Source: Octopus vulgaris
Taxonomy: Eukaryota
Direction of reading: 5' to 3'
NCBI GenBank assembly: GCA_951406725.2
Contig: OX597836.1
Location: 32,364,001-32,428,000 of the forward strand
Length of the DNA: 64,000 nucleotides
How positions within the stretch are numbered: position 1 is the first letter of the stretch; the number at the start of each line of letters is the position of its first letter. This document shows positions 22,361-33,672 of the stretch, in pieces. Under the pieces are notes generated by a model that saw only the letters and a program-made list of their open reading frames with translations, was not told the origin of the DNA and made no database searches. A program made the position numbers and the translations under genes.

Positions 22361-23280
22361 TTGACTCTGAATGAGTCAAGAACATGAAATGGCTGTGATT
22401 GAAGTCAATTATCTGGAACATTCTAACATTTATTGTCAGTTGTTCAGCCATAAAAATAACTCTTGTCAAACAACTTAGATTATAACTAATAAATGTTTAG
22501 ATTTTGTACTGTGATAAATGTTTCTCAATGAAATACATACTATCATCATCATCATCATCATTTATTTATTTGTTTATTTATTTATTATTTTGGAAACAGA
22601 ATTTTCCTTTTAGCTGTCATTATTAAAGTTCTCTCTCTTTTCTTTTCTTCGCTTTAACTTTGTAATATCAGTTTTAATGACGACTAGTCAACCTTGTTAA
22701 ATATATTCACAGCCACATACCAGCCACCCACTACTACTACTACTACTACTACTACTACTACTACTACTACTACCACAACTACTGATGATGCTGCTATCAC
22801 CATCACCACCACCACAATCACCACCACCATCACCATCACCACCACCACAAGCAATATTCCCTTGTCTTTATTGTTGTTGTTGTTGGTCTTTTGTTTCTTC
22901 TCTTCTTCCACCAGCACTACAACCACAATCACCATTACAAACACTACTATTGCTACTGCTACTACTACTACTACAACAACTACTACTACTACAACAACAA
23001 TTACTACTACTACTACTACTACTGCTGCTGCTGCTGCTGCTGCTGCTACTACTACTACTACTACTACTACTACTACTACTACTACTACTACTACTACTAC
23101 TACTATAGTTCCTACACCACGTATAACTGACACTTCTAAATATGGACATCACACACATGCACACAGTACTGTAGTCGGAATATAAACCAGATGAAAATAT
23201 CTTAATTAAAAGTATTTTCCATTACAATTGAAGTAATGAGAAATGCTGAAACTAGCAGTTAATTCTTCCACATATCTCAT
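22361..23280 (+). repeat. Copy 1 of an inverted segmental duplication (partner 32965-33672)
   Basis: 22361-22520 matches the reverse complement of 33513-33672 at 158/160. 22593-22622 matches 33392-33421 at 30/30. Weaker colinear similarity continues at 23110-23280 vs 33220-32965. Confidence 0.92.
22728..23105. repeat. Compound trinucleotide microsatellite (ACT/ACC/GCT/TTG)
   Basis: Read directly from the sequence. Confidence 0.95.
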
Positions 23281-23484
23281 CGGATCATCTTTAACTTAAT
23301 AAAATCCATTGGACCAGGAATTTCTGGATTATATATTTAATTCTACTTATTGGGTGTCTTTAAAGAGTCTACTCTACTAGGAATGTTGAGGCAAGGTTCC
23401 CAGTTTCTGAATGCCTTACTTCATTCCATGAGCAGTAACCGTCTCTCTTGACTAAATGAAAGGTCATCATCATCATCATCACTA

Positions 23485-23805
23485 ACTGACACTCTGTCAG
23501 TTACAAAGATGTGAGTTCCAGTTGATCAAATCAATAGAACAGCCTGCTCGTCAAATTAACATGCAAGTGGCTGAGCGCTCCACAGACACGTGTGCCCTTA
23601 ACGTAACTCTTGGGGAGATGTGACTCAGAATGCGACAAAGCTGGCCCTTTGAAATACAGGCACAACTCATTTTTTGCCAGCTGAAGGGACTGGAGCAATG
23701 TGAAATAAAGTGTCTTGCTCAAGGATGCAGCAAACCACTGGGAAATCAAACTCATAACCTTATGATCATGAGCTGTATACCTTAACCACTATGCTATGCA
23801 TTTTC
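23485..23805 (-). mobile_element. Family F tRNA-derived SINE
   Basis: gttccagttgatc...gaacagcctgctcgt...caagtggctgagcgctccacagacac...ctggagcaatgtgaaataaagtgtcttgctcaagg. Other copies at 37175-37642, 46715-46790 and 49077-49253. Confidence 0.8.
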
Positions 23806-24194
23806 TCATCATCACCATCATCGTTTTAGCATCCACTTTCCCATGCTCATATGGATAGGATGGAAACGAGGCTGATTTTCTATGGCCAGATGCCCTTCTT
23901 GTCACCACCCCTCACCTGTTTCTAAATAAGGTAATATTTCCCCGTTAACCAGATCAGAAAGATTTGGAAATGCAGGGCACTGCTTGCTTTCCCCTCCACC
24001 ACCACCACGACCACCACCACCAAAATTTAGATTTGATGGTCATGGTTGTACCACCTCCCATCTCAGGTCTGTTTGCTTGATCTGGATTAATCTGGGGTTT
24101 ACTACTACTACTGCTGTTGCTGCTACTACTACTACTACTACTACTACTACTACTACTACTAATAATAATAATAATAATAATGATAATAATAATA

Positions 24195-24410
24195 ATTTCT
24201 ACTATAGGCACAAGGCCTGAAATTTGTGGAGAAGGTGTAAGTCGCTTACATTGACCCCAGTGCATCACTGGTACTTAATTTATCGACCCCAAAAGAATGA
24301 AAGGCAAAGCCAACCTCAGCAGGATTTGAACTCGGAACATAATGACAAATGAAATACCGCTAAGCATTTCGCCTGGGAATGCTTACGATTCTGCCAGCTA
24401 GCCACCTTCT
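24195..24410 (-). mobile_element. Family B SINE flanked by (AAT)n
   Basis: Reverse complement of the family B consensus. Confidence 0.85.
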
Positions 24411-24834
24411 CTAATAATAATAATAATAATAATAATAATAATAATAATGATAATAATGATGATGATGATGATAATGATAATTTATTGCTATTTCACATTT
24501 ATTATATACAATATTGCAACAACAAACCAGCAAGGGAGTTGGCTGCTACTTTGTTGGTCAGTCAGTTGGACAGCAACCAAACCTTCCTTCGCATCACACC
24601 TTATTGTCTTCATAATGAAAAGAACACACATCATATTAGAAGTTGTGGGTTATAACACTTTAAATGTGTCTCTGGTAATTCTCAGGTGTTTCATGAAATG
24701 TAATCCAATCAATTTGCTAGAATATTTGGCTGTGAAATATATTTGAGAAGTGACAGCTCTGCAAACAGCCAGACATGTGACTGGCGAAATGTAATAATAT
24801 GATGGCTAATTATTTTATATCTTTTTATCTTTTG

Positions 24835-25132
24835 AGAGCTTGCATGGCCTAGTGGATATGGTGTTTCACTCAGGATTCTGAGATCGCAGGTTTGATACCC
24901 AGATAGAGTGGGGGTTTCTGTTCTTGAGCAAAACACTTCGTTCATATTTCTCTCTAATCATTTTCACATCTGACATTTGGTACACCATGTGCCCATTTGG
25001 GCAACACCGATTTGATGAAGAGAGTGAGGTAATGTACAGCATGTACATTTGATCACCATAAACAAATCATTTTTGCAGGTCGTTCAGCAAAAAGCTGAAT
25101 GCTCACATGTCGTCTTCGACAGGAGAGTCTGT
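24835..25132 (+). mobile_element. Family G tRNA-derived SINE
   Basis: gcatggcctagtggata...gtttgatacccag...ttgagcaaaacacttc...cgacaggagag followed by (CAT)n. Confidence 0.75.
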
Positions 25133-31003: not shown

Positions 31004-31290
31004 TTAAATAAGTATATATATGTATGCGTGCATATATATGTGTGTGCATATGTATGTGTATATGTGTGTATATATACATATTTATGTATATGTGTATGTA
31101 TATATGTATTTATGTAAAAGTGAATGTGTGTTTTTTCAATGTTTACAAATAACACAGAAAAAATAAATAGTTACCAGGGTAGCAAAAATTCAAACAAGTA
31201 CCAAGGATGTAACAGCCTACTTATAGAGGTAGAAACTCCAGGTTTAGGTGAAATGTTTTTATATAATATAGATAAATAAATAAATAAATG

Positions 31291-31360
31291 GAGTTAAACG
31301 CAGGTGTTATTCAAATCTTTTTCGTTATTCAAACATTTGAATAATACCTGCGTTTAACTC
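31291..31360. repeat. 26-bp inverted repeat at the end of a microsatellite-embedded insert
   Basis: gagttaaacgcaggtgttattcaaat / atttgaataatacctgcgtttaactc. Confidence 0.85.
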
Positions 31361-31484
31361 TATGTATCTATCTGTCTATCTATCTATCTATCTATCTATC
31401 TATCTATCTATCTATCTATCTATCTATCTATCTATTTATATATATATATATATATATATATATATATATATATATATATATATA

Positions 31485-31935
31485 TCATCATCATCATCAT
31501 CATTTAACGTCTGTTATCTATGTGCTGGCATGGGTTGGATGGTTTGACCATGGCTGACAAGCAGAGGGGCTGCATCAGACTCCAATCTGATTTGGCATGG
31601 TTTTCTACTGCTTGATGCCCTTCGTAATCCCAGCCACTCTGAGAGTATAATGGGTGCTTTTATGTGCTACCAGCATGGGTGCTATGTGCGTGACACCAGG
31701 TTGTATTTACGTGCCACTGGTACAGGTGCAAATTTGCATGACACTGATATCTGCCATGACTGTGATTTTGTTTTGCTTGATGGGTCTTCTTCTCATGCAT
31801 GACATAATGCCAAAGGTCTTGGTCATTGCTTCTGTGAGGCCCAGAATTCAAAAGATGTTCTTTACATGCCACCAGCATGGGTGCACTTGACTTGATGGGT
31901 TCTCTCAAGCATAGCACATCGCAAAAGGTCTTGGT
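31485..31935 (-). mobile_element. Family C retroposon
   Basis: (CAT)n-ttaacgtctg...gcatgggttggatgg...tgatgcccttc. Confidence 0.8.
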
Positions 31936-32964
31936 TATATATATGTATACATTTATTTGTATGAGTCTTTGTGTGTCTGTATGTGTGTGTGTGACATATC
32001 TTGTCACAAGGACATATCTTGGCTACAGTTAGTCTATGTTTCTTGCACCTCCTCATAGAAAGATATGGTTGTAAACTAATTAAGATAATTATATAAAATA
32101 AAAGAGTCATTTGATCTCTTTTCTTCTCTCATGTCCATTATATTTTTAATTTCTCTATAAATCTTGAAAGCTGTTTTTTAAAATACCATTCATTGAAATA
32201 CGTTGTTGGATTCATCACCACCAAGGTTGCACTTCACCTGTTTATACAAAAGTGTAAACAGAACAACAGCTGGAGTTTTACCTTATACAGTGATACCTCA
32301 CAGTATGAATTTAAATCGTTCCATGGCCGATCTCATTTTATGATTTACTCATTTTACAAATCAATTTTCTCCATTAAAATTAACTAAAATATAATTAATC
32401 CATTCCAGCCCTCAAAATCCCCTTAAAAATAATTTTTTATGGGTTTTAAAGCAGAAAAGGTGTAGTTACAAGTAAAATGACAATTATAAAAAGAGAATGC
32501 AAAAGAAATATGTAAACTGGTTTTATTAACTGAATTACCGTAAAGATGGGATGATTTGTGTGCTCATACTGTGGATTTCCACTCATATTTCAAGACAAAA
32601 TTTTGCCTGAGTCTCAGCTTGTACAATGGGGCACTTGTACTGCAAGGTTTTACTGTATGTCAGTATTTTGGGGTTATGACCACTTTCTCAGGCCACATGG
32701 AAAAATGAGGATGTAGTAAGATGTTACTCAGATATGTGAGAGAGGATGGTGATATATGATGGATAGATATAATACCTTGCCTGGAAACAAATGAGGGTTG
32801 CTGATAGGAAGGATCCCCAATTCATGAAAATTCTTCTGCCTCAGCAAAATACCACCTGACCCATGCGAGCATAGATAAGGGAATATTAAACTGATAATGG
32901 TGATGATGATGATGGTGATGACAACAGTGATAATGATAAATTACACTATCTGTGTATTGTGCAT

Positions 32965-33672
32965 GTGTTAGATGTGAAGGAGATTTATTTGATATTTTTA
33001 ACATTTCTTATTTCAGTTGTAAAGAAGCATACTTTTAAAGATGTTTTCAATCTCGTCTGCATTATTCCAACAGCAACACAGAACATATGTATGTGTGTGT
33101 ATGTGTGTGTGTGTGAGTGAGTGTGCATGTATGAGAAAACATGTGTGTGTGTCTGAGTGCATGACATACATATTTAATAGGCTATTAGAAGTGTCGGGTG
33201 CACAAGTGTTGTAAGTACAGAGACAGAGGTAGGAATAGCAGTGGTAGTGAGGTTGGTGATGGTGGTGTAAGTGCAGACACAACTGTTTTAGTAGTAGTAG
33301 TAGTAGTAGTAGTAGTACAACAGTGACTAGTAACGATTGGCTGGTTGTTAAACTTATTCCGAAGTCAAAGCAGGGAACGGAGATAAGTTACTAATGACAG
33401 CTAAAAGGAAAATTCTGTTTCAAAAATGATGATAATAATAATAATAATAATAATGATAATAATAATGATAATGATAATAACAATGGTAATGATAATGTAT
33501 CCCCTTGATAATCATTTATCACAGCACAAAATCTAAACATTTATTAGTTATAATCTAAGTTGTTTGACAAAAGTTATTTTTATGGCTGAACAACTGACAA
33601 TAAATGTTAGAATGTTCCAGATAATTGACTTCAATCACAGCCATTTCATGTTCTTGACTCATTCAGAGTCAA
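32965..33672 (-). repeat. Copy 2 of the inverted segmental duplication
   Basis: See 22361-23280. Confidence 0.92.

Follow-up and report, generated by a model that had tools for sequence, protein, structure and literature searches.

Regulatory blocks carry a recognisable signature, long bystander introns with conserved elements (PMC3514665), and duplication is described as a source of shadow enhancers, accounting for 18.3% of the sets in fly and 33.9% in mouse (PMC13345019). An enhancer syntax reported as a vertebrate hindbrain rule places a PBX-HOX site, TGATNNAT, and a MEIS/PREP site, CTGTCA, within 100 bp (PMC4489388). The linkage of otoferlin and EYA is given as ancient and broadly conserved in metazoans (PMC10329180, section 10), squid Eya is reported in the eyes, statocysts and light organ (PMC10329180), and for cephalopods a set of 1187 coleoid CNE candidates, at 95% over 100 bp, has been presented (PMC9023564).

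Here, two inverted copies of a short non-coding sequence in the first intron of Octopus vulgaris otoferlin are analysed. Judged from their sequence they are probably a duplicated cis-regulatory element, a twin enhancer, lying in what is a probable Eya-otoferlin block. The window (the whole stretch of DNA analysed, 64,000 nucleotides) contains the following features.

1..64000, plus strand: otoferlin intron 1, spanning the whole window (exon 1 ends at C23:32183567, exon 2 starts at C23:32437910)
22361..22520, plus strand: copy 1 core (160 bp of non-coding DNA within otoferlin intron 1)
22361..22379, no strand: palindrome with 7-bp arms at the outer core edge
22422..22501, no strand: internal inverted repeat, AATAAATG occurring once in each orientation
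22512..22519, plus strand: TGATAAAT, a predicted site that fits the published PBX-HOX consensus
22521..23285, plus strand: copy 1 inner flank, diverged duplicate with expanded microsatellites
22593..22622, plus strand: copy 1 island, 30 bp, with CTGTCA at 22614
32960..33512, minus strand: copy 2 inner flank, diverged duplicate
33392..33421, minus strand: copy 2 island, 30 bp
33513..33672, minus strand: copy 2 core, 160 bp, inverted, in otoferlin intron 1

Otoferlin is a hair-cell exocytosis gene, its function being known from vertebrates. The octopus gene is 917 kb long (C23 32.18-33.10 Mb) and both copies sit in its 254-kb intron 1; exon 2 starts roughly 10 kb beyond the end of the window, and exon 1, absent from the 264 kb surrounding the window, was located upstream, 180 kb before the window begins. 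Eya-domain exons begin 45 kb past the last otoferlin exon on the opposite strand, making a tail-to-tail pair in which a developmental regulator stands beside a bystander gene with a long intron and a conserved element (one element was examined). No further gene appeared in the otoferlin-Eya interval among the 60 of 206 frames screened. In the search for other coding genes, nested or lying upstream, 25 frames and 150 of 290 candidates (low-complexity ones dropped) yielded only transposon domains, a single C2 exon of otoferlin and two matches below threshold; the screen is weak, since even otoferlin exons 1 and 2 escaped it. The host and neighbouring genes, which the earlier note had proposed to identify, are therefore otoferlin and Eya, a context that strengthens the enhancer reading and makes it probable that the two genes form a regulatory block.

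The copy 1 core matches the reverse complement of copy 2 at 158/160 positions, differing by C/T at 22462/33571 and A/G at 22508/33525, and the islands are identical at 30/30, so that a recount upholds the earlier description of a 160-bp block with only two transitions and a second, fully identical island. With a separation of about 11 kb, this is the pair of highest identity among the 54 inverted pairs of at least 100 bp and at most 15 kb apart in the intron. The A at 33571 in copy 2 arose in the lineage of the O. vulgaris genome, since three related organisms, C, D and E, carry G. The spacer between core and island is 72 bp and microsatellite-rich in copy 1 and 91 bp in copy 2, a modular build that was counted in favour of an enhancer. 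Whether two separate copies exist had been raised as a doubt; in independent runs, organism E has both of the outer junctions and organism D both of the inner types, and the arrangement is thus not an assembly artefact. The terminal palindrome marks the end of homology, as had been noted, but is not itself a conserved feature, since its left arm holds three of the eight variable core sites (22362, 22365 and 22367). The internal inverted repeat would form a weak bulged hairpin as RNA, and twin sites as DNA.

Only two matches to the core were found in the 2.8 Gb genome by BLAST and two mismatch-tolerant patterns, against 539 candidates for a neighbouring repeat searched as a control, and the inner-flank segment 23105-23300 has a single genome match. 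No target-site duplication is visible in the sequence flanking the elements, and a metagenome scan with a 20-mer gave two chance matches whose homology did not extend past 22-24 bp. The earlier observation of no other copy in the window and no target-site duplication therefore extends to the genome, with no dispersed family; the core has neither the many copies nor the target-site duplication of a young repeat or repeat terminus, and its presence as two copies only argues that it is no transposon.

The alignable parts of the inner flanks are 71-78% identical, with mismatches at 22-30% of positions. None of 500 shuffles aligned as well for 22623-22730, and likewise for 23110-23285; homology weakens past 23285 (40/500) and is undetectable outward of 22361/33672 (168/500, and 250-675/1000 in a second test). 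These results agree with the earlier picture of colinear but strongly diverged inner parts, an old duplication and an abrupt outer edge. Outside the core the duplicate has undergone neutral-looking decay, and by these comparisons the locus is an old local inverted duplication within otoferlin intron 1.

The core was compared with its flanks in contigs of the close relatives C, D and E, none of which covers the 30-bp island, and eight variable core sites were found. In organism E, where both copies exist, 4/301 core sites differ against 21/270 flank sites (1.3% and 7.8% divergence; Fisher P=1.5e-4, or 2.1e-4 with the flank counted as 18/222), and a 139-nt contig common to both copies has no difference from copy 1 (P=1.3e-5 under the 7.8% neutral rate). 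A young transposon is ruled out by this contrast together with the two genome-wide copies. Organism C shows 0/147 against about 5/151 (P=0.06), and organism D, the closest relative by flank, 4/147 against 1/76 (P=0.66), with no constraint seen and three core changes of its own. The comparison of core with flanks that had been suggested earlier thus bears out greater conservation in organism E but not in D; the signal comes mainly from E, and the contigs collapse both copies, so single differences may be hidden. By established theory, sequences of different species diverge no more slowly under gene conversion. The excess of change in the flanks of organism E, and the unchanged 139 nt at a neutral rate of 7.8%, therefore reject conversion alone and point to constraint on the primary sequence. 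Earlier, selection or gene conversion had been offered as alternatives; purifying selection on the 160-bp core is now supported by these sequence data, and conversion is weakly supported as a process added to it. Neutral sequence that conversion alone keeps alike, or a young transposon (the element itself or its terminal repeats), would fit the sharp edges of homology and the organism D core, which has diverged as much as its flank, but is largely refuted by the organism E contig, the two copies and the missing target-site duplication, and is highly improbable.

The copies are, in addition, more alike than selection alone predicts: the paralogues differ at one ancestral site where 4-7 would be expected from orthologue rates (P 0.007-0.14). 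This excess would suit a structural DNA element, a paired tether or boundary that requires its two copies to remain alike, or a segment able to invert, with recombination homogenising its arms under selection on the sequence. One organism C contig, which joins the copy 1 outer flank to the copy 2 inner flank, points the same way; its depth is 6.8, and it is equally likely to be an assembly chimera because organism D loses branches at such depth. Copy-specific changes also persist in E, D and the O. vulgaris genome, and such an element is quite unlikely.

The same excess would be expected if the arms paired in the pre-mRNA of otoferlin, forming a duplex of 160 bp (plus 30 bp) that loops out 11 kb, is conserved for pairing, and either undergoes editing by ADAR or influences how the 254-kb intron is spliced. 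Pairing is possible in principle because gene structure places both arms in one plus-strand pre-mRNA, and the predicted energy is -256 kcal/mol. Since the host transcript is the plus strand, the mismatches would be A.C, one of the two types the earlier note had foreseen, and not the G.U of a minus-strand RNA. A.C is a mismatch favoured by ADAR, and six of seven transitions give it in otoferlin RNA, but the bias does not reach significance in a sign test (P=0.125, or 0.375 with neighbours merged). No compensatory or shared change is shown among the eight variable sites (the organism D change at 22414 may lie in one copy or in both), and adjacent unconserved repeat pairs fold more strongly, at -399 to -573 kcal/mol; together these weaken the case for the duplex first proposed, of which the shared pre-mRNA stands. 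Moreover, 54 inverted pairs within 15 kb occur in the intron, the interval between the arms yielded no exon, a long pairing should tolerate single mismatches, and the median length is 13 nt among conserved long-range pairs in the literature (bioRxiv 10.1101/2020.05.05.076927). Conservation for pairing is accordingly considered unlikely.

The core contains a 35-codon frame from the ATG at 22371, so the earlier statement that it has no open frame was incorrect to the letter, but there is no coding signature: the only two changes are both second-position replacements, on which a micropeptide was rejected, and conservation extends 42 bp beyond the stop. Each copy might instead belong to a small transcript, non-coding or unannotated, as an exon or as its 3' region, and be conserved as RNA; this would be either a duplicated ncRNA or a UTR with two K-box-like TGTGAT sites. 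The two TGTGAT (P=0.04), AATAAA on both strands, an acceptor-like TTTTCCTTTTAG inside the island and a modest fold (z -1.8 and -2.3) would be consistent with this. Rfam, however, gave at cut-off one match in the whole window, tRNA-like at 33751-33805, and by E-value seven weak matches in 22200-22750, all far below cut-off. Local folding found no miRNA-like hairpin (the best one spans 80 nt at -17.8 kcal/mol and has an 8-nt bulge), and neither a family match nor the canonical hairpin or boxes of a microRNA or snoRNA were seen. There is no donor site common to both copies, the weak screen found no nested coding gene, and a 156-nt contig from one run guessed to be RNA crosses the outer edge unspliced, although it has no bearing on expression. 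A transcript is thus also an unlikely explanation. The core is not protein-coding and belongs to no known RNA family or repeat, as expected of a conserved non-coding element.

The cores have changed far less than the surrounding DNA in a related species, making a duplicated enhancer with both copies kept the likely explanation. The six motifs listed earlier were correctly placed but individually are near chance (P 0.06-0.32 in 3000 core shuffles), and none of the eight variable sites falls inside them (P 0.10-0.18). The element is at least 788 kb from the Eya coding exons and 203 kb from the first otoferlin exon; these distances, the changes peculiar to the organism D core and the wide motif pair of copy 2 were counted against an enhancer. 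After the old duplication, purifying selection would have kept the core, both copies probably acting at the DNA level as cis-regulatory modules for Eya, otoferlin or both. The constraint would reflect transcription-factor binding at TALE/Hox-type and other putative sites, the spacer ahead of the island being free; dosage or robustness would retain both copies, and occasional conversion or crossover between arms 11 kb apart may top up identity. Eya has an even chance of being the target, otoferlin a somewhat smaller one, and any other gene is improbable. It is rather unlikely that selected elements of an Eya-otoferlin block are under double constraint, being also kept in step by recombination, whereby the 11-kb interior would flip in some lineages, or by pre-mRNA pairing, which would bias changes to ADAR-favoured A.C mismatches in otoferlin pre-mRNA. 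The result would be either a twin enhancer that homogenises itself or a pair of enhancers doubling as an edited long-range duplex.

To our knowledge, few candidate enhancers are known in cephalopods. The element, which is not described in the published literature searched, is a compact single-locus candidate joining the contexts of otoferlin and Eya. The locus makes it possible to test directly whether intronic enhancers maintain the old otoferlin-Eya linkage, and offers a natural experiment on whether selection alone can keep duplicated enhancers identical or conversion is needed.

Like the blocks of PMC3514665, whose main text does not name Eya or otoferlin, the locus has Eya beside an anciently linked gene with very long introns and a short conserved intronic element, but this candidate lies in the intron farthest from Eya and occurs twice. 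As in duplicated shadow enhancers (PMC13345019), two nearby copies share homology in the body and one flank; unlike them, the bodies are 99% identical despite a flank diverged by 22-30%, the copies are inverted and the enhancer is a candidate by sequence, and the main text of that paper does not use the term 'gene conversion'. Both motifs of the PBX-HOX and MEIS syntax described in PMC4489388 fall in conserved parts, within the 100 bp of that syntax in copy 1 (94 bp apart) and beyond it in copy 2 (113 bp); of 928 segments of equal size in the intron, 34 (3.7%) hold the pair. The intronic complementary pairs of bioRxiv 10.1101/2020.05.05.076927 are likewise conserved segments of a single pre-mRNA separated by about 10 kb; here the arm is 160 against that 13-nt median, lies far from splice sites and shows no compensatory change, complementarity being a by-product of duplication. 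In element class and genome clade, the locus is the same as the cephalopod CNEs presented in PMC9023564.

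The element examined here, an old inverted pair in which two cores have stayed near-identical, is somewhat more probably than otherwise a cis-regulatory module, a local duplicate retained in both copies within a probable Eya-otoferlin regulatory block.

22361-22520, forward strand, core of copy 1 (160 bp)
33513-33672, reverse strand, core of copy 2 (160 bp)
22593-22622 and 33392-33421, 30-bp island inward of each core
33741-33822, forward strand, tRNA-like sequence at 70 bp from the outer edge of copy 2 (34.8 bits to Rfam tRNA, cut-off 29)
G000:C23:32183489-33100679 (source contig), forward strand, otoferlin, 917 kb span

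The near-invariance and age claimed for the pair in an earlier note both held. The copies agree at 158/160 core positions and at 30/30 in the island, and pieces of the inner flanks, toward the partner copy, mismatch at 5/18, 20/73 and 36/120 aligned bases, with many gaps. The inner-flank alignments score above every shuffle (0/500 reach them), while shuffle tests on the outer flanks detected no homology outward of the core. The core pair has the highest identity among 54 inverted pairs (at least 100 bp, at most 15 kb apart) of the host intron; what is unusual is that so old a pair is still near-identical and shows weak signs of having been homogenised and inverted.

A transposon origin, which the note had allowed for as a young transposable element, is excluded because core and island occupy two genomic loci, as against 539 candidates genome-wide for a control repeat 300 bp upstream of the core. 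BLAST of the core gave two candidates and two matches in the 2.8 Gb genome, and a 28-letter core pattern (up to three mismatches) and the island (up to two) both recovered the same loci. The inner flank and the copy 2 outer flank each have a single genomic match. The tRNA-like sequence is likewise a single genomic match, has a poor acceptor stem and no ARAGORN call, is identical in organism E over its initial 29 bases, and is probably the degenerate remnant of a tRNA or the head of an old SINE.

The window contains several other repeats. An inverted pair (21386-22206 and 27961-29208, 87% identity in two pieces) ends 155 bp before copy 1 and has hundreds of copies in the genome; its second arm holds about 440 extra bases between the pieces, carrying a presumably transposase-like frame with no Pfam match, and 21386-22206 seems to be that DNA transposon after loss of internal sequence. 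Decayed Tc1/mariner-type transposase fragments lie at 16836-17446 (DDE_3 below cut-off) and about 29300-30150 (judged by eye), and a tandem repeat at 57210-57624 (period roughly 24-72 bp) has long low-complexity minus-strand frames.

The host gene, which the note had proposed to identify, is otoferlin, both copies lying inside its intron 1. An exon 70 kb past the window end matches otoferlin proteins. Mollusc otoferlins, used to map the gene, locate coding exon 2 some 10 kb beyond the window and exon 1, with compatible splice phase, at C23:32183489. Exon 1 lies 203 kb ahead of the copies, and exon 2 follows them at a distance of 40-51 kb. The middle exons are compact, the first intron spans 254 kb, and several gaps of 86-95 kb, in which weaker exons may be missed, separate matched 3' exons up to the gene end at about 33.10 Mb. 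Intron 1 also holds an inverted repeat whose 84-bp arms match perfectly across a spacer of 152 bp (G000:C23:32236179-32236497), and an otoferlin intron holds a tandem array of about 22 copies of a 60-bp unit at 95-97% identity (G000:C23:32476154-32477465). Eya-domain exons (PDB match EYA2/EYA3) lie 45 kb beyond the otoferlin end on the opposite strand, and the 60 of 206 intervening frames screened held just ferlin tail and transposase, with no other gene. A weak screen saw no coding genes in the 220 kb upstream of exon 1 (G000:C23:31964001-32183000), which may be a gene desert.

The stretch is present in 20/24 listed sequencing runs, which carry five organism labels, and five runs were compared, all as contigs (X1, X7, X8 and X9 for copy 1; X20, X9, X7 and X8 for copy 2). 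In organism E both outer flanks run into one 139-nt contig with 0 differences from copy 1, and private changes fall at 22502-22503 on the copy-1 path and 33671 on the copy-2 path. Differences there number 4/301 in the core versus 21/270 in the flank by manual count (P=1.5e-4), or 18/222 in a second flank count (P=2.1e-4); the flank rates are too low, since pieces below 80% likeness were not aligned, and the core count is possibly too low, the shared contig being counted for both copies and rare variants being lost from contigs. Organism C gave 0/147 versus about 5/151 (P=0.06). Organism D runs counter to constraint, with three private core changes on the copy-2 path (33619, 33666, 33668) and a flank of only 1/76 plus one indel (P=0.66). 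The core primary sequence is thus under constraint, mainly on the evidence of organism E.

The note had offered selection or gene conversion. The core-flank difference in organism E favours selection, and conversion alone is rejected, the observed 0/139 having P=1.3e-5 at 7.8% divergence. Scaling the orthologue rate to paralogue distance (0.26-0.37 versus about 0.08-0.09) predicted 4-7 ancestral differences between the copies and one was observed; the conditional P for this excess identity is 0.056-0.14 when only E is used and 0.007-0.034 once C and D are included, which hints at occasional conversion or co-evolution in addition to selection. Of the two core mismatches given in the note, that at 33571 is recent, as C, D and E share G there, and that at 22508 is an older paralogue difference, as the organism D contigs fork in two there. 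The only contig from organism C, 485 nt long at a depth of 6.8, has the copy 1 outer flank, yet fits copy 2 at 33499-33672 with one difference. Such a junction is the expected product of interior inversion; an assembly chimera is equally plausible, because organism D, at similar depth, has one branch missing from its contigs.

The binding motifs that the note had picked out are each near chance (P 0.06-0.32, 3000 shuffles), and its six motifs are hit by 0/8 variable sites (P 0.10-0.18). Two post hoc choices are rarer in shuffles: AATAAATG, present twice in opposite orientations (P=0.0007), and AATCACAGC (P=0.003). The latter resembles a Gfi1/Senseless site, yet also occurs in 10/928 intron windows. 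TGATNNAT with CTGTCA is described as enhancer syntax (PMC4489388); the distance between the two is 94 bp for copy 1 but 113 bp for copy 2, and they co-occur in 34/928 intron windows. These matches are leads for candidate binding sites.

The note's other reading took the copies as arms of a long-range RNA duplex. Their predicted duplex in otoferlin pre-mRNA reaches -256 kcal/mol, and three unconserved repeat pairs adjoining are predicted to form stronger ones (-399 to -573 kcal/mol). The eight variable core sites would give six A.C, one G.U and one U.U on plus-strand RNA, a 6:1 split with P=0.125, or 0.375 once neighbouring changes are merged, and a weak screen found no minus-strand transcript. 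The element matched no Rfam family, it folds modestly (z -1.8 and -2.3), and no miRNA-like hairpin was present, the best local hairpin being unlike miRNA. Contrary to the note, the core does contain an open frame, of 35 codons, in which the two changes are both second-position replacements. In the conserved long-range pairs reported in 10.1101/2020.05.05.076927 the median arm length is 13 nt, compared with the 160-bp core here.

A literature search, with supplementary data relevant to the miRNA and synteny points outside its scope, found no account of the element itself. As a cis-regulatory module it would be of a known type, because duplication is described as a route of enhancer birth (PMC13345019) and sets of conserved non-coding elements have been published for cephalopods (PMC9023564). 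Otoferlin-EYA linkage is said to be widespread in metazoans (PMC10329180). As PMC3514665 describes them, regulatory blocks are marked by a developmental gene, a long-intron bystander, conserved elements within introns, and enhancer activity. The Eya-otoferlin locus fits the first three of these marks, and the enhancer activity of the present element is putative.
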